DNA of 64,000 bases. It comes from Dictyostelium discoideum (Eukaryota). Shown in pieces: positions 6,096 to 51,957 of the stretch. A program made the position numbers and the translations under genes. Position 1 is the first letter of the stretch, and every line of letters begins with the position of its first letter. Under the pieces are notes generated by a model. That model was not told where the DNA came from. It searched no databases and saw only the letters and a program-made list of their open reading frames with translations. The stretch spans positions 2,272,001 to 2,336,000 of the forward strand of contig CM000150.2 of the NCBI GenBank assembly GCA_000004695.1, written 5' to 3'.

Positions 6096-6167
6096 TCCTT
6101 GTTGGTCTAGTGGTGAGGATTTTCGCCTGTCACGCGAAAGGCCCGGGTTCAATTCCCGGACAGGGAG
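6096..6167 (+). tRNA. tRNA-Asp (anticodon GTC), 72 nt
   Basis: Cloverleaf read by hand. Acceptor TCCTTGT/ACAGGGA (one T-G wobble), D arm GTCT-AGTGGTGA-GGAT, anticodon stem TTCGC/GCGAA with loop CTGTCAC, T arm CCGGG-TTCAATT-CCCGG, discriminator G. A T5 run follows immediately. Confidence 0.9.
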
Positions 6168-6173
6168 CTTTTT
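6168..6173 (+). terminator. RNA polymerase III oligo-T terminator for tRNA-Asp
   Basis: CTTTTTA directly after the discriminator base. Confidence 0.6.
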
Positions 6174-25917: not shown

Positions 25918-30573
<4,656 letters not shown>

Positions 30574-34168: not shown

Positions 34169-34684
34169 TTATTGATTATTTTCTTTTTCTTTTTTTGGTA
34201 CATTTTTAAATTTAATTGTACCATTTTCAGTTACACCAACCTCAAGACCTAAATCTTTAAGTTCATCATTATTTGCAACACCTTTAACTTTCAAACTTTC
34301 AATTAAATTTTGATTCTCTACATTATCTTCACAAAGATTTCTAATTGCAAATACTGACCATTCTTTAATATCTATATAAATTATTAGTATTATTATTATT
34401 ATTAGGAAAAATCATAATCTTAGTAACTTATTTATTTATTTATTTATTTATTTTAAATTATTATAATAATGATTATTATACATACATGGATTATTAACAT
34501 CAAAACGACAATGATTTAAAATGATTTCAATACCACCTAATTCACGAATTTCATCTTGATTACCTCTATTTTTGTAAGATAAATTACCTAAAATACGAAT
34601 GAGTTCAATTTTGAAACCTTTATCTTGTGATTCAATATTTTTATTAAACCCTTTTGATGTTACAGTTTCACCATCTGTTGTTGT

Positions 34685-34720
<36 letters not shown>

Positions 34721-36216
34721 GTTTGTATCACTACCATAATTACCATGTAAAGAACCAATACAAATAGCAACTAAACCTTTTTTTCTTAATAAAGTATTTA
34801 AATCGAATTTTTTAGAAGCAGATGGATCAATTGCACTATCCTTTGAGAATGGATCATTTAGAATTTGATTAACTGGATCCTCTTCCCCCTCTTGTTGTTT
34901 AGTTGGTATTTGGTTTGGTTTAAATATTGATAATGATAATGATAACATCTCTTCAGTGTATGATGTAATATTTGCAAATATTTTAATAAAGAAAAAGATT
35001 GCATCGAAATCTGATTGATTTAAACTTGTTGTCAATTGTTGAGTTTCAACTTTTAAATCTTTACGAGCGAAGTCTAAATTATATAAACTTGCCAATTCAT
35101 CAATCATGAAATAACAAGTCTTTAAATCAATTATTGAATCTTTTTCAATATATTCTTTAATATTCTTCTTATCACCATCATGTATAATTGAATCTAAAAG
35201 ATTTAATAATTTAACTTGATTTTTATTTGTTTTACCTGTTGTTGTTGTTGTTGTTGAATCTGTTGTTGAATCTGTAGATTCTGTTGTTGTTGATTCAGTT
35301 GTTGATTCAGTTGTTGATTTAACTAATTCAGTTGAATATTTATTATCTGATAATGATTTATATAAATCAATGAATAAATCATTGATAAATAAACTTTTGG
35401 AAATTAAATGAATCCAATGAAAATTTTGAGTATTATATTCGTGATCGAATGTATCATCTTCTTTAATTAACTCTATAATTAATTGAACTAATCTTTTATT
35501 ACAAACTAAATCTTTCATTCTATCTTTACTATTTAATATACAATTATAAATTAACATTAAATTGGTTGGTAATAATTTAAATTCATCATTATCTTTATAT
35601 TTTTCAATTAATATTCTAAATGTTAAAAAAATATATTATATGTTAGTGTGTGTATTTATATATATATATATATTTACATATATGTTTTATCTCATGAGAA
35701 TATAAATATATATAATTACATTAAATTATTTGGATAGATATTTGACCATAATAAAGATTGAGTTTTATCATTTAAAACAATACCATTAATTAATAATTGA
35801 TATAATGATGTTAGGATATTTTTTTTATTAAGAGTTATTTTAATATTATTATTTTCATTTATTAGTTGATTTATTATGAAATTTATAAAATTTGAATTTG
35901 AAATTATAATATTTTGATTCTCTGAAACATTTGCGCATAAGTTTCTTAAAAATCTAATTGATGTTAAATTGAATTTAAATAATTTTTCATTATTATCACC
36001 ATTTGCTGTTGTTGACTTTATTATATAATTCATTAAGATATTTAAAAATTCATTATGTTTATTTGATATTTCTTTTCTAACATCAAATTCTTTTGAAAGG
36101 TTAAATAATTCTGTGATATCTGTAATCATTGTATCCTCATCCTCTCCATTACTAATTTCTTTTGATAAACATTCTAATAATGATTTTATTATTTCTGTTG
36201 TTGAATTTACTTTCAT
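34169..36216 (-). CDS. Ataxin-10 homolog (ARM-repeat protein). Exons (minus strand): 36216..35720, 35615..34486, 34371..34169.
   Basis: The C-terminal region LIRILGNLSYKNRGNQDEIRELGGIEIILNHCRFDVNNP | YIKEWSVFAIRNLCEDNVENQ matches the ataxin-10 domain signature, including the EWS.FAIRNL motif that sits across intron 2. Donors are AT|GTAATT and T|GTATGT; acceptors are catttag and tatatag. Phases are consistent. Confidence 0.7.
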
Positions 36217-36575: not shown

Positions 36576-36977
36576 TTATAAACTATCAATTATTTTTTTA
36601 TTATTTATTTTTGCATTTGAAATTTTTAATAAATGGTAGTAGTTAATGGCTTTTAATTCATTTATCCTATTTTTTTCATTTATTTGTTTTCTTTCTTCTT
36701 CAGTTAAAATTGGATTTGTAATTCTCAATATTTCATTTGATTTCGATTTTGAAGAACAACAACAACAACAATCATCGTCATTAATTATATCAGAAGAATA
36801 TTTTAGTAATCGACTACTATCATCTTTTGATAAACCTATTTTTGAATTATTCTCTAAATGATTTTCTAAATCTAATTTTAATTGTTCTTGTCTCCCAAAT
36901 TCTAATATTTGTTCATTTCTTTCTTTTTCAATTGCTTCATGTTCTTCTATTAAAAATGCATATATTGAAGTATCCAT
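36576..36977 (-). CDS. Hypothetical small acidic/charged protein (133 aa)
   Basis: The ORF includes a DDDCCCCCSSKS stretch and a coiled-coil-like charged sequence. No domain recognised, and it could be part of a larger spliced gene. Confidence 0.35.
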   Translation of the reverse strand: MDTSIYAFLIEEHEAIEKERNEQILEFGRQEQLKLDLENHLENNSKIGLSKDDSSRLLKYSSDIINDDDCCCCCSSKSKSNEILRITNPILTEEERKQINEKNRINELKAINYYHLLKISNAKINNKKIIDSL

Positions 36978-37357
36978 TTAATATATAAATAAATATATTA
37001 GTTATTTATATATTTATATTTTGGATTTGTTTTAAATAAAATTAAAAAAAAAAAATAAAAAAATAAATAAATAAATAAATAATTAAAAAAAAAATATAAA
37101 CAATTTTAAAATAATTATAAATATTATTTGAAAATAAAAAATTACTAATATTTATAATTCTTTTTTATTTTTATTACTTTTTTAAATAAATATTTTTTTT
37201 TTTTTTTTTTCATTTTTTTTTTTTTTTATTTTCTTCACTTAAACACAACCCCTTATTTTGACATCGAAATAAAACTCACGCCACTATTTTTTATTATTTT
37301 TAATTATTTGTTTTTTTATTTTTATTTAAATTATTATTTTTTTTTTATTTTTAATTA

Positions 37358-37388
<31 letters not shown>

Positions 37389-37453
37389 ATTATTATATTT
37401 TTTATTTTCAAAATTAACACTAATTATTTTTTTATATTATTTCAATTTAAAAG

Positions 37454-38009
37454 ATGAGTAATAGTGGAAAAACTTTAAAGTTTTTAGCAAATAGTGTATG
37501 GAGAGGTTCTTTAAATGGTTCTGGTATGACAACTAGTGGTGGAAATGCATTTAAAAAAGGTATACAAATATAAATATTAAAATATGTAAAATAATATTTA
37601 GTACTAATAATTAAAAATAATAAAAAACAATTAAAAAAAAAAAGGTCTACCATTAGAAGTACCATCTTTAGCGAGAGGTTTACCAGATTCAAAACAAGAT
37701 GAAAATAAAACTAACCCTGAAGAACTTGTAGCCGCTGCACATAGTGCTTGTTTTACTATGACTTTAAGTGCTATTTTAGGTGCACATAAGTTATCACCAA
37801 AGGAAATAGATACCAAAGGAACTTTAACATTGGAAAAAAGACCAGATGGTTTCAAAGTTTCAAGTATTCATTTAACTTGTAGTGGAAATGTACCAGGTAT
37901 TGATGAAAATAAATTCAAAGAATATGCCAACATGGCAAAAAAGAATTGTCCAATGTCAAAGTTATTTAATAATAATTGTGATATTTCATTAGATGCAAAA
38001 TTAGTTTAG
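37454..38009 (+). CDS. OsmC/Ohr-family (organic hydroperoxide resistance) peroxidase. Exons: 37454..37559, 37645..38009.
   Basis: The spliced product MSNSGKTLKFLANSVWRGSLNGSGMTTSGGNAFKKGLPLEVPSLARG...NPEELVAAAHSACFTMTL...IHLTCSGNVPGIDENKFKEYANMAKKNCPMSK has both catalytic-Cys contexts of OsmC/Ohr (AHSACF and KNCP). Donor G|GTATAC (phase 1), an 85-nt intron, and an A-rich acceptor aaaag|GT. Confidence 0.8.
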
Positions 38010-39231: not shown

Positions 39232-42200
39232 ATGGTATCAAAAATATTACCAGGATTATTAAAGAAAATATTAGGTAATTACATTGAAGGATTGGATACA
39301 TTGTCAATACCATGGTGGAAAGGTCAAATTGTTTTAGAGAATTTAAAATTCAAAAAAGAGTTATTTTCATCCAATGAATTACCATTTGATTTATTAAGTG
39401 GAGTTGTCAAACGAGTTGTAATTACAATACCAATTTTACATTTTTTAAAAGATCCTATAGTGGTTAATATTGATGGAGTATTTTTACTATTTGGTCCAAA
39501 AGATATAATTAATACATTTAGTAATTATGGTAATGATAAATCTAATAAAAAAGATATCGTTATTGATGATAATGATGGTGGAATTTCAATCGATAGTAAT
39601 AGTAATAATAATAATAAAAAGAATGCGCCATCATCATCTTCATCTAATGATGATTTTTTTAAAAAACCAAATTTAACAAAAGAAGAATTAAAAAAAATTC
39701 AAATTCAAATTGATAAAGAACAATCGAAAGAATCAAATGATGGTTATTCAGCTGATAGTGAAAGTTTTAAATTTAGGATGATAAAGAAATTATTGAAATG
39801 TATTAGAATTCAATTAAATAATCTTCATATTTGTTATCAAGATGATTCAACATCACCAGGTGAAATATTCTCTGTTGGTATTACAATGGAGTCATTTACA
39901 TTTCAAACTACAGATTCGCAATGGGTACCATTATCAAAGAATACTTCAACTCATCAACAACAACAACCAACTTTTAATCCATATGTTGGATCACAACAAC
40001 AACAACAACAACAACCACAACAAAACACTGAAATTAATTATGAAAATGATAGTGAACATAATCCATTCATGAATAATAAAAATAGTGATGAAGGGATATC
40101 ATCATCATCATCATCGTCATCATTTAATAATAATAATTTAAATATACCAACATTAAATTTAAATGATAATTATATGGATTCTGAAGCATATACAACAAAT
40201 ACACAACCAACACCAAAAAGTGAACAATATCAACAGCAACAACAACAACAACAACCATTAGGTCAAATAGTTGATCAAATTATAACATATAAATTGGCAA
40301 GTATATTTAATTTTTCAATTTATTGGGATTCACAATTTGGAAAGACAAGAATGGTAACACCAGAAGATATGGATGTATTGTTAATGCATTCAATACCAAG
40401 GCAAAAAGCAAAGATTAATCATAAATATATACTTCAACCGATTAGTGGATTTTTAAAGATTTGTTTAACTGAAGATTCAATTGAAAGTGTTAATAAGGAG
40501 GGTGTATTCAATTCTATTGCAAATAATTTCAATGTTTCAATTGGATTGAAACAAATTGATTTACAACTAATGGATATTCAATATAGGGATATGTTAAATT
40601 TATTATCATTTTATCAAGATTGGCGAAGAGTTTTAAGATATCATAAATTTAGACCCCATTGTAGAGTTAAAGGAAATGCTAGAATTTGGTGGCATTTTGC
40701 ATTCCGCTCAATCATTTCCGATTTTAGATCAAAGAAAACTGAAATGACTTGGAAGGAAATTGAAGATTCTAAAAGAGTTAGAGAATGTTATATTAAACTT
40801 TACACAGAGAAATTTATAAAAGGAAAGTTGGGTAGATTGGATCAAAACCTTATCGATGAAATCGAGAAAAAAGTAACCTATGAAGATATTGTATTGTTTA
40901 GAACCATCGCTGAAAAGGATTTAAAAGTTACAAAAAGAAAAGATTTAGATCAATTCACAGAGAGTTCAGGTTGGTGGTTAGGTGGTTGGTTAGGATTTCA
41001 ACATCATCATCAAAATAATAACCAAGATAAAATAACATTAACCAATGAACAGTTAACATTCTTGGAACGGTATTTAAAGGTTAATCTTAAAGTTTTAGCT
41101 GGTAAACCTCATTCATCAGTTTCATTGATTTTCTTTTTAAATGTTAAACGTTTGTCAATTTCAATTTTAGATTGGCAAGAGAATCATACAGTTGTACCAT
41201 TAGCAAACATTGATATAACCGAAGTTAATTTACAAATGGAACAATCTCATAATACAAAATTAAAATTCTCTGCTGAATCTTTAGATATTTTCGATAGATG
41301 TTCACCAAATACAAAATTTGAAAATATTATATTAGAGAAATCAAGATTTAATTCTTCAAATATTAATCCAGATAATAGTGCTAATAGTATTGGTTCATTC
41401 ATACTTGATCGTCAAATTTCAAATTCTGAATTTCTAAATGGTGTTTATACTGGTGTTAATGGTACTAATAATAATAATAATAAGAAATTTATTGATATAT
41501 CAATTGTATTAAATCCACCAGAGGATACAACAGATTATTTCATTTATTTTAAATTGGAGCCATTTTATTTCATAAATTCAAAACCATTCGTTGATACAAT
41601 GATACCATTCTTTACACATGCAAATCAAGAAGCATTAGATCGTTTGAAATATTCATTCATAAAGAAAATTAAAATACTTCAAGAATATTTAATAAATGAA
41701 TTAAAACATTTAGTTAGAAATCAAAAAGTTGCAGATATTAAATTAGATATAGCAATACCAGGTTTAGTATTCCCAGAATCTTATGATCGTGAAGATACTA
41801 TGGTATTGGTTTGTAATATGGGTAATTTAATATTAAAAACTCAACCACACAACAGTGAATGGGATTCAATGGATTTCTCTGAAATTAATGAACAAGATGA
41901 AACTGATGAAATTTTCGTACGTTATTGTAATCTTTTAAAAGATAGAGTTAAATGGTGGTCTGATAATTGTCCAATTAAAAAAATTAATGAACCAATTGAA
42001 AAACAAAGTTATATAATAAATTATGTTCAACAACATAGACAAACAATTGAAAATCTTGGTACTGGTAATGGTATAAATAATAATAATAGTGGTGGTGGTG
42101 GTAATGGTGGTAATGCATCTAATTCAAGTGAAGATGATGGTAAATATCCAGAACAAGATGATTTAGATGATAGTAAAGTTGAAAAAGAAGGATTTGATAG

Positions 42201-42882
42201 TTGTGATACAGATTGGAATAAAGTTTCAGTTAATATAAATAATGCTCAGTTTTATGATGGAATAGTTTTAACAATTAGTGATATCTATGTTAAAGTTTGT
42301 GATTGTACACAAATTAATAATTTCAATTATTTAATATCACCTTTTAGTTTGGATATATTTTTAGAGTTATGTTCAAGACCATACGATTTAAAATTACCAC
42401 AAATTAAATGTAAGGCAGAATTATCAGAATTGAATCTACAAGTTTCAGATAAAGAATTATATGAAATCGCAAAGATTGTTGGTAAAAATGGTATTTTAGA
42501 ATACTTTATGGATATGGATAGAAAATCATCAAAAGAATTAGCTGATATGTATGAAATTGTTCAAGTGAAAAAACCAAAGAAAAAATCATTCGAAGTTCAA
42601 TTCTCATTATTCTCTGATACAAAATCAATTTTAAATTCAAGAAAACGTACAAAAGAAAGGTTAGTTAAAACTACACTATTAAGATTCTTTTTCACTAGTA
42701 ATGCAATCAATATGAAATTGAATTATTTAGACTCTTGTACTTTATCATTAACAATGGATCAAATTCGTTGTAGAAGTTTAGTTAAATTTATGCAAATGAA
42801 TATTCAATTCGATATTTCATCAATTGAAATTAAAGATTCAAATTCAATAACACCAGTATTATCAATTTTTCCATATAATTTA

Positions 42883-42952
<70 letters not shown>

Positions 42953-45622
42953 GAAATTTAAATAATAATAATAATAATAATAATAATAATCAAAAACCTG
43001 AATGTTTAAATGAATTTCCAATTTCAATTACAGCGAAATCAATTAGTAAAAATTCATTAGATTATGATTATATTGATTTTGTATTAACATTAACAACTCA
43101 ATATATAAGAATTAATTTTCCAAAAGAATGTGTAATGGCATTAATTGCAATCATTGGTACAGTTGTTACAAATACAACCAATTTCTATGAAACTAAGAAA
43201 TCCATTCTTACAGTTGAAGGTTCATTTTATCAAGGTAGAGTTGGTCAATTTACTCAATCAAACACAACAACAACCACTTCACCACGTTATCATCATCAAA
43301 ATCATCATAATCATCAACATAAAAAACAAAATCGTCATAGATTATCAACAAGATTAGAAACTAATGAATTTGATCCAAATGATTTGAAATCGAAAATTAC
43401 AATTAATATACCAAGTTTTGGTTTAACGCTTAGTACAATTGAAAATGATTTAGTTGCATTCCAATTTGAGGATATTTCAATTGATGGTATTTTTCAATTA
43501 CCTTTAATAGATTGTGAATTAAAGGTTAGAGATATGAAATTCATTGATTATACAGGTTCAGATGGTCCATATCCATATATGTTGATTACACAAAAATCAC
43601 AATCACCAATGGTACCAGTTGTAAGAATGCATTTAGTTTGTCATTCAAATAGTAAAACTCAAGAATGGGGTTTTTCACGTTTAATCAATATAGCTGTTGG
43701 TAAAATTCAAATCACTTTTCTATTACAAACTATAAATTTAATACGTTTATTCATTCATGATATTACTTCATCATTAAAAGAATATTGTCCATTCTTATTT
43801 AAAGTTATGGCAATTGTTGATGATAATAATAAACCATCATCAAAAGATAATAATAATAATAATAATAACAATAATAATAGTGACAGTGATAGTGATAGTG
43901 ATACTGATAGTAGTAGTAGTAGTGAAAACAATTATAATAATAATATTGATTTAAATTCACCAGTTGTTGAAATTGTTAAAAAGAAAAAGAATTTAACAAA
44001 TTTAGAGATTGAAATTGATAATAATGTTGTAATAGTTCCAAAGAATAGTAGATCAAGATCAGCAATTAGATTTAGTGTTGGAAGAATATTACTGGGGTTA
44101 GATCAAATGGATCCAACGGTTGATGCAGTATTTGTAAAGATTTATGGTATTAATATGGCATCGAAATATGAAGATTCAATTGATCCAATCATTTCAGATC
44201 CAATTAAAATGGATATTAGATTCATTCATATGTTTGAAACTTCTTTAAAGGATAAATCAATTGAAGTCATTATTAAAATTGATAAAATTCATTTAAAGTT
44301 ATCTCAATACCAATATAATCTATTATACAATACATATCAACAAAATATTAATCAATCAATTGTACCGGCCCCACCCTCAAATTCATACTCCACTGTCGAA
44401 AGACAAGATATTCTATTGGATATTAGGTTAGAGTTTAAAGATTTTGTTGAATTAAATTTAGAAAATGAAAAAACCAATGATTCAAGATTCTTTTCAATGT
44501 TAATTCAACGTCCAATTATTTGTTGTTCAGTTTGGAATAATGGTGATTCAGATTTCTTGATTAAAACAACTGGTATAAGTGTACGTGATAAGAATAAATT
44601 AGTGGTTGTACCAAATGGATTTCAAGAGATGATCAATATTACACCATATGATTTAGATGTACCAATAAAGAATGTTATTAATCAATCGATTAATGAAGTG
44701 TTTTTTGATATAGTTAAAATGAATATCGATGACAATGGTATTGATATTAATATCACAATAGAATATTTAAGTATCTTTTTCGATTTACCTTGGGTTTCGA
44801 AATTAATAACATTCTTATCACCAATTATTGATGCCGATTATATTGGTAATAGTTGTTCAAATTCAACTAATAAATCTTCAACAACAATCAATACTCAGTT
44901 ATTACCCCCACCGCCTCCACCACCACCAATCTCATTAAATAAATCTGGTGTGAATTTAACAAATCAACAACAAAATGAAGAATTTAATTCAAAATTTAAT
45001 AAGGATTGGAAAATATTCTTAAAAGTTGAAGTATCTGCAAAGAATGCAAATATTATGGTTGGTGATTTAAATAGTAAGAATGAATTAGTATTATTAATGA
45101 ATTCATCATTATTGATTAATTCACAATTTGGTACTGAAGGTTTAATGAAAATAATATTAGAATATCAATGTATTAAAGGTTTAATTGGTAATAAAACAAA
45201 AGATCCAATCTATTCAACTAAAAATCCAAGTGCAACTACAATGTCTTTTATTTCAGCTAGCAGTCGTGATTTGGGTGCTCAAAAGAATACAACTCATTAT
45301 CTTTGGAAAGAATTAAAGAAATCTTCAAAATTATTTTTAGAAACTTTTAAAACTAATATTCAAGTTTGTTTAGTACCTGAAGGTAATCAATTCTATTTCT
45401 GTGAATTAAATGATCTATCATTGGTATTCTCTGGTAAAGCATATAAATATCTATTAGATATTTATGAATGTGTTTCTGATATAATCTATGGTGTTAGTAA
45501 ATCAAAAGATATTACAAATAATAATTTAGTTCAAAAACATAGTCGTTCATCTTCAATTAGTACAGATTTACCAATACCAATTAATTTAAGAAGAAGTTCT
45601 ATAATTTCAACAAATTTAATGC

Positions 45623-45699
<77 letters not shown>

Positions 45700-48600
45700 A
45701 ATAATAATAATAATCAAAATAACCAAGCAAGTAGTAATAATAATAATAATAATAATAATAATGTAAGTGGTAATACAATTAATAATAAAAGTGTACCAAA
45801 TGTTCATGATAAAACAAAGAATCAATTTTATCAAATTAAAACTAGATCAGTTGAGATGTTAAGAGCTCATCAAACTAGAGTTACAGAGAAATATCAAGCA
45901 TCATTACCATCAAATGGAAAAATAGCAGAAACAGAAGAGAATGAAAATGGAGATCATACATTTACAAGTGATGATGATGATGATGAAGGTGAAGATGAAG
46001 ATATTGGTGAAGGTTTTTCATTAGATCATAGTACATCAAGTGCACCAACATCAAGATCAAATTATAACAATATAAATGAACCAATGATTGATTTAAAGAG
46101 TAGTAAGAAACAAGATGATTCAAATATGGTTACAAAGATTCAATTCTCACAAATTTCAATATCAATTAAAAATCTGAATATCATTATAATGGATGATCTT
46201 AGTAAACATAAAATGAATACACCCATTTTCAATATGAAATTAAATTATGGATTTATGAAAGCAGTTTTAAAGACAACTAGAATTGAAGTTGAATTCGATT
46301 CAGTATTTCAAATGAACTATTTCAATAATAGAATTGCATATTGGGAACCATTCATTGAACCTTGGTTATTTAAATCAATGATGACATTGGGTAAAGAATT
46401 ATCAATCGATATATACAGTACAGATTTATTGAATATTAATTTCACAATACCATTAATGGATAATATAAGTCTTTTCCTTAGAACTTATAGTAAAGAATTT
46501 GGTTATCCTTTCAATTTAATTTGTGCACCATCCGATAGTAATAACACTGATAATAGTAGTAATAATGGAAAGAAATCTCATTCAAATCGTCATTCTCTAA
46601 TTGGACAAATTAAGAAAATTAAAGAAAAAAAGACAAAAACTTCTTATTCACCATTTTTCATTAGAAATAGAACTGGTTCACGTTTAAGATATAGATTGGA
46701 AACTCAAGACGGTAAACCGGTTGCAGGTGTAAATCATAAAATGGAAGGTTCAACAGTTCGTGTTGTAAATATTGAAAATTATGGACTATTTTTTGAATTG
46801 GATTCTGGTGATTGTTCACCAATTAAATTCTTACCTGATGTTCAAATTAATTTAGAAACATTTAGTCAATTGGTATTGGCAGTCGAGTTATTGGGTGTTG
46901 AAAAATCAATTTCAATTCCATTGGATAAAATTAAAATCTATGACTATCAAGTTTATTTGGATAGTTCAACCAGTACAAAACTTTATGCAAATATTGGTAT
47001 TAAAAATGGTACGAAATTAATCACAATTCAATTCCCTATAGTTTTAAAGAATTTAACATCATTCCCAATCGATATTGCAACGGTAACTAGTGGATTTGGT
47101 GATACTCAAATGCCAAACTATTCAACTACTATTAGAGTTGGTCAAGCAAGAGCACCATTACCAATCAATCGTATGAGAAATGTACAAATTAAATTTAAAC
47201 CATCAGGAGACCAATACAAGTGGAGTACTGAAGCATTGGATGTGAATAATGTTATTGAAGGTGAAGATAAATTCTCTTGTATTTTAAAGAATGGTGAAAA
47301 AATATACTACATCAAAGGTTACATTTTCAAAAAGAATCAATGTTTTATCATTAAACTTTGTCATATGTTAAAGGTTAAGAATCTATTACCTTATCCAATT
47401 CAATTCAAATTGAAATCTCCAATTGAAAATATACCACTATTAAAACGTGAAACTCAAGCAACCGTTCAAGATCAAGAGAAAACTGAAGTTTATGAAATTC
47501 CATTATTGGATAAATTTAAAATTCAAGTTAGAATCGCTGATAAAGATGGTACATTTGAAAAGAGTGAATGGAGTGAAATTCGTTCAATAGTTGAACGTGA
47601 AGATAATAATGAAATTGGTGTTATAACAATATCGGATTCAAATAATCTAATTGTTGATTATCTTCATTTAAATGTAGAATTTGAATCTTATAAAGGTGAA
47701 AAAAAGATAGTTTTCTATAATCAATATTGGATTTTTAACAAGAGTGGTTTGAATTTATACTGTAAGAAATCTTATCATTCAAAAGATTATTCAGAGAGTC
47801 AAACTCATTTTAATCATCCACTTCAACAATTAGATTCATCAAATACAAACACAACCATTAAACCATCGGATGCCATCATTGTAACACCTGATCAATGGTA
47901 TTCTCATCAATTAATAAAAGAATCACCATTGTTATTCTCTTTTAAGAAATTAAAAGATATGGAAAATTCAATAAGAATTAGAGTTGGTGATTCAAAATGG
48001 TCTCATAAGATATCAATCGCTGCAATTGGTGATCGTGGTACAATTGTAATTGATTCATCAGAGAAAAGACATTCACGTTCTTATCATTTAGGTTTATCAG
48101 TAGATTTAGCACCAAATTTAAAAACAAAAATAGTTGTTTTCACACCAAGATTTGTATTTCATAATCTTTTTCCATACACAATTTTAGTTCAACAATGTGG
48201 TGCAAACACTGATTCCACTACTATTAGAATTCCTCCATCATGTTCTGTACCATTTTATTATTTCATTAATAACACTGGTGAGTCTTCAAAACCAACATTG
48301 AAATTCAAAATTGATTATCAAGAATTTGATTGGTCTCCTCCATTTTCAATTCAAACATTTTCAGATTTTACATTTAATGTATTCAATAATAATAATAATG
48401 ATAATGTTGAAAATTATAAACAACCTGATATTCATTGTAATCCATATATTAGAATTAAAACCTGTTTAGAAGTTGCAACCATTTTAGTTATTATATCAGA
48501 ATTAAAAGAACCACCTTATAGAATATTAAATAATACAAAGTATCAACTTTCAATTCAACAGAAAAAAGTTGGTAAAGTTTTAACGGTTGAACCATCTTCA

Positions 48601-51600
48601 TCAATTCCTTATGTTTGGGATTTACCATTGGAAGATCATATTTTAGAGGTATTAGTACATATATCAACCAATCAAAGTGAAAAGGCATCTTATAAGATGG
48701 ATAAAATTAAAACTTTTAGACCAATGGAATTTAATGATGATCATAATCCTGTGGTTATTAAAGCGATTGTTGAAGCTGATGAATCAACTCGTGTATTAAC
48801 ACTCTCTGATAAGACATCATTTCAAATTAGTAAATATGAAGAAGAGAATTTACGTCAATCATTTAGAATTCATTTCACTGGTATCGGTATATCAGTTATT
48901 AATGCAAATCCAACAGAACTTCTTTACGTTTCAATTCATGATATCCTTTGTGAATATTTCATTAGTAGTTTTCTTCAAAAGTTAGAGATGAAAATTACAA
49001 ATATTCAAGTTGATAATCAATTATCAAAAGTTACACCCTATAGTCATCCAGTTTTATTATTTGCAGATAATCTATTACCAAATACACCATTCTTACAAGT
49101 TAGAATAGTAAGATCAATGAAAATGAAAAATATTGATTACTATCATCATGTCTCTTTGAAAATGCAAGAATTAAACATTAAAGTTGAAGAGAAATTCCTT
49201 TACGTATTATTGGATTTCTTTAATAGTTTAGATTTCTCATTTTGGACAGGTAATAAAAAGACAAATACTCTACATAATATGGATATGTTAACTCCAATGT
49301 ATAATGAAGATATTGGTGAAGGATTTATAGATGAAATGGTAGCTCGTGCTCTACCTTCAATCTATGGTAAGAAAATGTATTTCGAATCATTGGATATTGA
49401 ACCAATTAGTATGTTTTTAACATTTGATCTTTCAAATAAGTCTGGTTCAATCGCAAGTTTAGAACAAGCTCCAATGGTAAAAGCATTTAGAAGAATAGGT
49501 TTCGTTATTGTTAGTTTTCAACATGCTCATATATTTTTACATGGTTTCTCATTATCTCATGCATTTGGTTCGAATGAAGAATTGCTTGCACCAATTTTCA
49601 ATCATTACTTTAGTGAAGGTTTATCTGAAGTTTATAAAATATTGGGAGCATTTAATTTGTTTGGTAATCCAGTTGGTTTGGTTACAAACTTTGGAATTGG
49701 TTTTAAAGAATTTTTCGTTAGTATGGGTAAAGGTTTGGTAGGAAATAGTTTTACTGATTCATTTGGTCAAGGTTCAAAAAGTTTAGCAAAACATTCAGTC
49801 TATGGTATATTTGATTCGGGTGCAAAACTAACAGGTTCTGCTGGTAAAGTATTATCAACACTTTCAATGGATCAACGTTATATTCTAGAGAGACAATATA
49901 TCATTGGTGAATCACCAAATACATTTATGCAAGGTTTAATATTGGGTGGTAGAGCTGCAAAAACTGCTGTTTATCGTGGTTTCTCCGGTTTCGTAAAATT
50001 ACCTTATGAAGGTGGTAAAGAAGCAGGACCAAAAGGTGTTGTCAAAGGTATTGGTAAAGGAACTGCTGGTCTTGTGCTAAAACCAATTGCAGCTGGCTTT
50101 GATTTTGCTTCAAAAGTTTCAGAGGGTATTAAAAATTCAACTCAATTAAGTATAGAAAGAAAGAGAATTAGATTTCCACGTCCACTCTTTAGTGATTCAC
50201 CATTAGAAACATATGATTCAGCTGAAAGTTATGGTCACTTTTTATTCCTTACCTATATTATCACCGCTGGTAAACTTAGAAGAATCTCTGCTGATCAAAT
50301 TAATTTACCATTAATGGAAGTGGTTTCAAAGGATGAAAAATATGTTTCTCATTTAATCTATAAAAATAGAAAAACCCTTCTTTTTACCAATAAAAGAATT
50401 ATCTATCTCTATGATACCGATGGTTTTAGAACAAAATTCGATATAAAATATACAAGAATTCATGGTGTTTCTGAAAAATCAGATCATATCGATATAAAAA
50501 TAGATAAAAAACATAAACTATCATTCCTCTACAATGAAAAGAATAAAAAGATAGACTATAGAATCAAGTGTGTTGGTGAAGAGAAATCCTATATCTTTTA
50601 TAGAATAATAGAAATGATTAAAACTTATAAACCATTTGCTGATGAAGAGTTAACTGTCAATGGTTTAAAGGCTGACCCAACTACAATGATTCCAATTCCA
50701 CCACCACCCCCACCACCACTACAACAACAACTATTATATGGTTCAAATATTATTCAACAACAGCCACCAATTCAGTATTTCAATGATGGTAGTAGTAGTA
50801 GTAGTAATTTAACTGGTGGTAGAACAATTCAACCAATTATCTTTACAAATGATGCTGGTCCAATGAGAAATGATTTAAATCCAATACTTGAGAATTTATT
50901 AGCTCAACAACCAAATAAGAATATGGAGATTCCAATTTGGATTTCACAAGGTTTCAATCCACCAAAACCACCAGATACATTAATTCCACAAAGATTTAGA
51001 GACCCAAATTTAATTAATAATAATAACAACTACTATTATCCAAATGGTTCTGGTTATGTTTATTCCCAACCACCACTATATGATCAATATGGTAATCAAA
51101 TTCCACCTCCCCCACCACTTCCATCACATCCATTAGCTATTGATCGTCCAACTACAACTACAACAACAAATACAACCACAACACCCTATCAATCATCTCA
51201 AAATATTCACTCAACACCATACCCAACTGAAACTCCTCAATCTGTTGTATTAAAAGAAGATATTTCAAAAGCAATTCATACTCCATCTGCTAGCTCTTTA
51301 AAGAAATTAAAAACCCCTCATCATTACAATGTAAGATTTGAACCATCAAGTAGTTTAGGCCCTCAAGATTTTGATATTCATACAATTCGTTTACAAAATC
51401 AACAATATCAACACAGTGGAAGTGGAGCACCCCCACCCCCACCAATAATAACCACAACAACTAATTCAACCATTCCACCACCATCTTCTAATATAAATCA
51501 ACGTCAATTACAACATCAATTCTCTAGTAATTCGATAATAGAAACACCAAGATATAAAAGCATGGCTAGACAACAACAATTTCAACAACCACCACCTCCA

Positions 51601-51957
51601 CCTCCATTACCATCCAATAACAGATTATCATTAACACCAAGTGGTAGTGGCAATATAAATTATAGTGATAAATTTGAAGTGGCATTGAACACAATTATTC
51701 AAATTCAAAAAATTCAATCTCAACAAATGTCATCACTTCAAAAGAATCAAAGAGATTTACAAAAATTATTATTTCAACAACAATCAACCGAATTTGATAC
51801 ATTAAGAAATCAACAAGAACAAATTCAAAACATAATATCACAATATCATCCATTAAGCCCTTCAAAAGCTTCTTTAGTTTCAAAACTATCCAATGAACTT
51901 GAGTCAACAAATAGTAATGTTGTAATTTCACCTCCAACAGGTGGTGCTTCAAATTAA
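39232..51957 (+). CDS. VPS13-family bridge-like lipid-transfer protein (4241 aa, single exon)
   Basis: N-terminal chorein domain (MVSKILPGLLKKILGNYIEGLDTLSIPWWKGQIVLENLKF...). The conserved VPS13 C-terminal segment (GNPVGLVTNFGIGFKEFFVSMGKGL...VYGIFDSGAKLTGSAGKVLSTLSMD) is followed by a PH-like region. The protein ends in a long Pro/Gln-rich tail. Internal poly-N and poly-Q tracts come from (AAT)n and (CAA)n. Confidence 0.85.
45622..45699 (+). repeat. (CAA)n coding repeat (poly-Gln) in the VPS13-family gene
   Basis: Pure caa repeats followed by (AAT)n. Confidence 0.9.

Follow-up and report, generated by a model that had tools for sequence, protein, structure and literature searches.

A two-exon OsmC peroxidase gene, most likely an old bacterial acquisition, in a Dictyostelium discoideum chromosome

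How does a gene of bacterial affinity come to lie, split by an intron, in an AT-rich eukaryotic chromosome? The question is raised by two ORF pieces that the sequence and its ORF list place in different frames at 37454-38009 on the plus strand of a 64,000-nt stretch of Dictyostelium discoideum DNA (hereafter the window; 16-32% G+C). The original prediction joined the two pieces into an Ohr/OsmC peroxidase gene, and took it to be either a long-resident product of horizontal gene transfer (HGT) or a member of an ancient eukaryotic lineage; the literature has considered the same two options (PMC3188802; PMC5384416). The gene, referred to as osmC, and the spacer before it are laid out as follows.

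36978-37453, no strand: intergenic spacer of 476 bp, AT-rich, between osmC (plus strand) and a divergent 133-aa ORF (minus strand)
37454-37559, plus strand: osmC exon 1, 106 nt, starting with the ATG at 37454 and encoding Met1 to Lys35 and the first base of Gly36
37560-37644, plus strand: osmC intron, 85 nt (GTATAC...AAAAAG, GT..AG), 8% GC, in phase 1 inside the Gly36 codon
37645-38009, plus strand: osmC exon 2, 365 nt including the TAG stop, encoding Gly36 to Val156 with the catalytic core

Left unspliced, the osmC frame runs into a stop after 39 codons, while removal of the intron gives a single open frame of 471 nt and 156 aa that is colinear with bacterial OsmC over the junction. Exon 1, which ends in ...AAAAAAG, supplies the first beta-hairpin, including W16, G18, G22, and G24, all of which are more than 90% conserved in bacterial OsmC in our alignment. 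Because exon 1 bears these conserved OsmC residues, the two ORF pieces belong to one protein, independently of any annotation. The spliced protein is identical to XP_647036.1 (also EAL73031.1 and UniRef100_Q55EI4; UniProt Q55EI4), recorded as 'osmotically inducible family protein [Dictyostelium discoideum AX4]' on a chromosomal contig of 4,923,596 bp; given this exact match, the exon junction found here is that of the curated gene model, and the coordinates and the 85-nt intron had been predicted exactly. The gene corresponds to DDB_G0268884 by name and by the tables of PMC3188802 and PMC5384416, rather than by a database cross-link to the accession, and it is the gene whose product was studied as DdOsmC by Meireles et al. 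(2017; PMC5384416), with protein and junction matching without difference. All 556 bp of osmC are 100% identical, base for base, in a second D. discoideum assembly, and a tblastn search of the window found no second OsmC-like gene.

The intron occupies the same site and phase (AFKK/G, with the slash marking the site; phase 1) in D. discoideum, D. firmibasis (L002, 91 nt), and D. purpureum (L001, 71 nt). Compared with D. discoideum, its identity is 68% in D. firmibasis and 52% in D. purpureum, against 87% and 74%, respectively, for the exons. The presence of introns has been noted before, and osmC cDNA was amplified 'without introns' from AX4 RNA and then expressed as an active enzyme (PMC5384416, sections 2.5 and 3.4). 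Positions 37560-37644 are thus a genuine spliceosomal intron, for which splicing in RNA is taken from that study. Other frame-keeping GT/AG pairs were considered and rejected, as they lose conserved residues or mismatch the annotated protein.

A profile search, which had been proposed as a check on the spliced protein, returned Pfam OsmC (PF02566) at 73 bits (E = 2.8e-20, cutoff 27.5) and NCBIfam TIGR03562 (OsmC) at 128 bits versus a cutoff of 85.8, the latter covering residues 12-153 of 156, whereas TIGR03561 (Ohr), at 60.8 bits, fell short of its cutoff of 88.85. The osmC product is a member of the OsmC subfamily and not of Ohr, and the initial label 'Ohr/OsmC' can be narrowed to its second half. 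The top sequence matches in PDB are OsmC of Escherichia coli (1qwi/1nye, E ~6e-19) and of Thermus thermophilus (1ukk, E = 7e-18), with Ohr entries matching far more weakly. An AlphaFold2 model built from a 46-sequence alignment (pLDDT 88.9, pTM 0.84), whose weak spot is the loop of residues 40-59 (pLDDT below 50 at residues 43-47), retrieved the same three OsmC structures as the top Foldseek matches (E = 1e-12 to 3e-11). The two bacterial proteins have the fold of the model (Foldseek probability 1.00, TM 0.60-0.68) at 31-36% identity in the structural alignments to the three entries, and share with DdOsmC the Cys motifs AAH-x-x-CF and CP-x-S and the Glu of NPEEL. They differ from it in that DdOsmC has an additional Cys147 and is encoded by a gene with an intron and eukaryotic codon usage. 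Ohr (TIGR03561; e.g., PDB 1n2f and 1zb8) shares with OsmC the superfamily, the fold, the two-Cys/Glu/Arg chemistry, and the lipoyl-dependent reduction; the catalytic Arg is located in the beta1-beta2 loop in Ohr versus the beta3-alpha1 loop in OsmC (PMC5384416).

The candidate catalytic residues are all encoded in exon 2.

37674-37676, plus strand: AGA codon of Arg46, the sole Arg in the beta3-alpha1 loop and candidate catalytic Arg
37719-37721, plus strand: GAA codon of Glu61, in the NPEEL motif before helix 1, catalytic Glu by conservation
37749-37751, plus strand: TGT codon of Cys71, in AAHSACF, candidate peroxidatic Cys, aligned to the Cys of AAHAACF in E. coli OsmC (1qwi/1nye)
37947-37949, plus strand: TGT codon of Cys137, in KNCPMS, candidate resolving Cys, aligned to the Cys of GCPVS in E. 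coli OsmC

The motifs AHSACF and KNCP, by which the gene had been recognized, are both present and contain Cys71 and Cys137, which are 66 residues apart and fall in columns that are invariant in our alignments. The Glu61 column is likewise invariant, and 99% of 178 non-dictyostelid sequences have Glu there. The position of the Arg is less straightforward. The beta3-alpha1 loop contains S-R-F-E in bacterial OsmC; in OsmC of group-4 Dictyostelium it contains S-L-A-R-G followed by about 9-11 added residues (…SLARGLPDSKQDENK…), with the Arg displaced. In three MAFFT alignments, the residue facing the bacterial Arg was L44, D50, or K52; the loop at residues 43-47 has a model pLDDT below 50. D. discoideum, D. 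firmibasis, and D. purpureum all retain Arg46, within S/A-L-A-R, and an Arg is conserved in the published alignment (PMC5384416). As the only Arg of this loop, and one conserved in the three species, Arg46 was taken as the catalytic Arg, which it probably is judging from the sequences.

Recombinant DdOsmC reduces cumene hydroperoxide in a lipoamide/Lpd/NADH assay, in which it consumes NADH roughly half as fast as E. coli OsmC, both being lipoamide-dependent (PMC5384416, section 3.4). From the conserved residues above and the chemistry established for Ohr/OsmC enzymes, we infer that Glu61 and the Arg (probably Arg46) would activate the thiolate of Cys71, which would attack the organic hydroperoxide. 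Cys71 would thereby be oxidized to a sulfenic acid, with which Cys137 would condense to form an intramolecular disulfide. The disulfide would then be re-reduced by a dithiol; in vitro, dihydrolipoamide plays this part, with lipoamide dehydrogenase and NADH regenerating it. Two points bear on the reductant and location of DdOsmC in vivo: the lipoylated reductants proposed for Ohr/OsmC enzymes have been described as mitochondrial in eukaryotes (PMC5384416), and the N-terminus of DdOsmC extends only about 8-11 residues beyond the start of the bacterial alignment, so that no organellar presequence is evident.

Besides osmC, group 4 has a second OsmC-subfamily gene. In D. discoideum AX4 this paralog (P0190, 162 aa) is located elsewhere on the same chromosomal contig, outside the window; it is about 41% identical to osmC, scores 94 bits with TIGR03562, and retains both Cys and the Glu, with a Lys at the catalytic Arg position of OsmC. 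The D. purpureum ortholog (locus GL871508.1, L001:3565-4106) is annotated as a 136-aa protein (XP_003294503.1, MTTS...) that looks truncated at the N-terminus. An ATG located 60 nt upstream (L001:3565) gives 156 aa (MSKKYIANSVWRGG...) and regains the conserved W/G motif; the extended protein scores 121 bits with TIGR03562 and has its intron at the same site as in D. discoideum. The intron sites of the dictyostelid OsmC genes are as follows.

Group-4 osmC: intron after codon 35 (AFKK/G), phase 1
H. album OsmC, L003:3001-3527: intron after RFGE, phase 1
P. violaceum OsmC, L004:3001-3507: intron after codon 7, phase 1
Group-4 OsmC paralog, L005:3001-3582 (D. firmibasis): intron within NPE/D, phase 1

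Each of these genes contains one intron, at a site that is different in each of the four lineages examined. As no site is common to the dictyostelid lineages, the 85-nt intron is specific to group 4. All four introns being in phase 1 has a chance of about 1 in 27 if phases are equally likely; insertion at AG/G proto-splice sites is an alternative.

All named relatives outside Dictyostelia are bacterial or archaeal. Of the 150 best representative matches, about 20 clusters were looked up; Dictyostelium, Polysphondylium, and Heterostelium were the only eukaryotes named in these, the rest being metagenomic. A scan of GTDB species genomes with an alignment-based query confirmed relatives in at least 596 bacterial and archaeal genome stretches. 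Most of the best 80 of these show full-length identities of 36-46% (identities of 50-54% among the 80 are confined to three short C-terminal matches and L033); the 80 are spread over Oxalobacteraceae, Alphaproteobacteria, Acidobacteriota, Pseudomonas, Halomonas, Verrucomicrobiota, and others, and no bacterial donor lineage stands out among them. The view of the family as overwhelmingly bacterial needs qualification, since 392 eukaryotic Ohr/OsmC-family proteins have been catalogued, although among eukaryotes the OsmC subfamily proper was found only in Dictyostelia (PMC5384416).

We consider it most likely that osmC goes back to an old transfer, in which an ancestor shared by at least dictyostelid groups 2 and 4 received the gene from a soil bacterium. 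Full adaptation to the host, in the form of AT-rich codons and eukaryotic neighbours, would have come afterwards, as would intron gain specific to each lineage and a duplication within group 4. The phylogeny that had been suggested as a check was computed by neighbour-joining (170 taxa, 138 columns, 200 bootstraps) and does not prove a transfer: the group-4 osmC clade was recovered in 97.5% of bootstraps, its grouping with the group-4 paralog in 66%, and H. album with P. violaceum in 66%, while all Dictyostelia formed one clade in only 5%, on a backbone that lacks resolution.

These values could also be read as the trace of several independent bacterial transfers, one giving rise to group-4 osmC, another to the gene of Heterostelium and P. 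violaceum, and possibly a third to the group-4 paralog. Consistent with this, the p-distance between OsmC of D. discoideum and H. album is 0.55, no nearer than the closest bacterial sequences; the intron position is different in every lineage; and the gene surroundings in H. album and P. violaceum differ from those in D. discoideum. However, the group-4 branch is long, and neighbour-joining may therefore misplace group 4. We also looked for residues that are common to D. discoideum, D. purpureum, H. album, and P. violaceum, and present in less than 15% of bacterial sequences. Four such rare states were found (V41, K88, L96, and C147). In a control with 1500 random bacterial pairs of similar divergence, only 1 shared that many states with group 4. 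These shared states favour a single origin of the orthologs, earlier than the split of groups 2 and 4, with group 4 on a fast-evolving branch, and several separate transfers appear unlikely to us. The group-4 paralog does not have the four states, which leaves room for a separate origin of that gene. A 'monophyletic' dictyostelid OsmC has been reported, from a tree that by its Fig. 2 legend included 78 bacterial Ohr and no bacterial OsmC sequences (PMC5384416); taken as the legend describes it, this tree is no real test of dictyostelid OsmC monophyly or of the donor. The authors themselves stated that their tree 'cannot confirm nor negate' ancient transfers (PMC5384416).

Instead of being acquired, the gene could have been inherited vertically from an early eukaryote, for example from the mitochondrial endosymbiont, and lost in nearly all other eukaryotes. 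OsmC-fold proteins occur in many protists, including the Amoebozoa Acanthamoeba and Mastigamoeba, and that of Acanthamoeba is located in mitochondria and another organelle (PMC13632651; PMC8136499; PMC5384416); moreover, the deep branches of the family lack resolution in the published tree (PMC5384416) as in ours. Yet OsmC-subfamily proteins with both the Arg and the Glu are found among eukaryotes only in Dictyostelia (PMC5384416), and the clusters looked up among our best matches, most of them nameless, included no eukaryote other than dictyostelids. Vertical descent would further require many independent losses, and no presequence is evident. The differing intron sites fit a gene that started without introns and received them later, which argues against an old intron-bearing eukaryotic gene. 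Taken together, we regard vertical descent as very improbable.

The neighbours of osmC in the window are given below.

25918-28545, minus strand: protein kinase
34448-36216, minus strand: ataxin-10 (Atx10) homolog
36576-36977, minus strand: 133-aa ORF, head-to-head with osmC and called as a separate gene in the second D. discoideum assembly
39232-51957, plus strand: VPS13-family ORF, an uninterrupted 4241 aa directly downstream of osmC (VPS13_N 815 bits; VPS13_C present)

The setting is eukaryotic, as originally described. D. firmibasis has the same gene order, Atx10-OsmC-giant ORF, with a giant ORF of 4199 aa. The 133-aa ORF has no Pfam match, and five consecutive Cys occur in it (DDDCCCCCSS); the spacer at 36978-37453 is presumed to be a promoter and 5'UTR region that it shares with osmC. 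The codons of osmC, described at the outset as host-like, were compared with those of the neighbouring genes as had been advised. GC3 is 0.134, within the range of 0.10-0.17 in six neighbouring ORFs, at a gene GC of 31%, and its RSCU values correlate with those of the neighbours at 0.88, compared with 0.895 +/- 0.052 for random samples of 156 neighbour codons. Constraint on the gene is evident from its dN/dS, which is 0.12 in the comparison with D. firmibasis and 0.32 in that with D. purpureum. The intron, host codons, eukaryotic neighbours, synteny, and identity in a second assembly together make osmC a true part of the eukaryotic genome. Bacterial contamination, an assembly artefact, or a dead unspliced pseudogene, for which nothing speaks except the bacterial affinity of the protein family, is ruled out by the host-like codons and AT-rich GT..AG intron, the position between eukaryotic genes on a 4.9-Mb chromosome, the identical second assembly, the synteny, the low dN/dS, and the activity of the enzyme made from cDNA (PMC5384416).

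Two other features of the window were recorded. A (TAA)57 microsatellite at 30167-30336 reads as long poly-Tyr in a mechanical ORF at 30166-30573 (minus strand); this tract is probably non-coding or intronic rather than part of a real protein. The sole tRNA gene in the window is tRNA-Asp(GTC) at 6096-6168 (plus strand); tRNA-targeted TRE retrotransposons are typical of Dictyostelium.

The reading of osmC as a two-exon nuclear gene for an OsmC-subfamily peroxidase, with the mechanism proposed above and, most likely, an old bacterial origin by HGT, is one that we hold with high confidence, and its essentials are already published. The gene is annotated, and its product was reported as an active peroxidase in 2017. 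As cited in PMC3188802 and PMC5384416, it was among the roughly 16-18 candidates for bacterial transfer in the 2005 D. discoideum genome paper; DDB_G0268884 is listed with its D. purpureum ortholog in Table 2 of Sucgang (2011; PMC3188802), and a 2026 preprint includes OsmC in its list of HGT domains for D. giganteum (10.64898/2026.03.01.708701). As the proposed checks had largely been done by others (HGT list, cDNA, activity), the original prediction was a correct interpretation rather than a discovery. What we add are the differing intron sites among dictyostelids, a set of bacterial relatives without a standout donor, and the four rare shared residues.

Other HGT candidates of D. discoideum (thyA/ThyX, iptA, ppk1, pscA, colA, and capA/B; Table 2 of PMC3188802) are of the same class, despite belonging to different families with different functions. 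They have in common with osmC an otherwise bacterial Pfam domain, a D. purpureum ortholog, and nuclear domestication. In this respect, osmC is a clean textbook case of a bacterial-type gene domesticated in a eukaryote, with host codons, an intron, duplication, and purifying selection. We tentatively suggest, as a possibility of less than even likelihood, that a single old acquisition was followed by independent gains of phase-1 introns at four or more sites, and that group-4 OsmC, with no evident presequence and a remodelled Arg loop, may be cytosolic and use a reductant other than mitochondrial lipoyl groups. If so, the dictyostelid OsmC family would document in nature, on a small scale, how a gene of bacterial origin gains introns.
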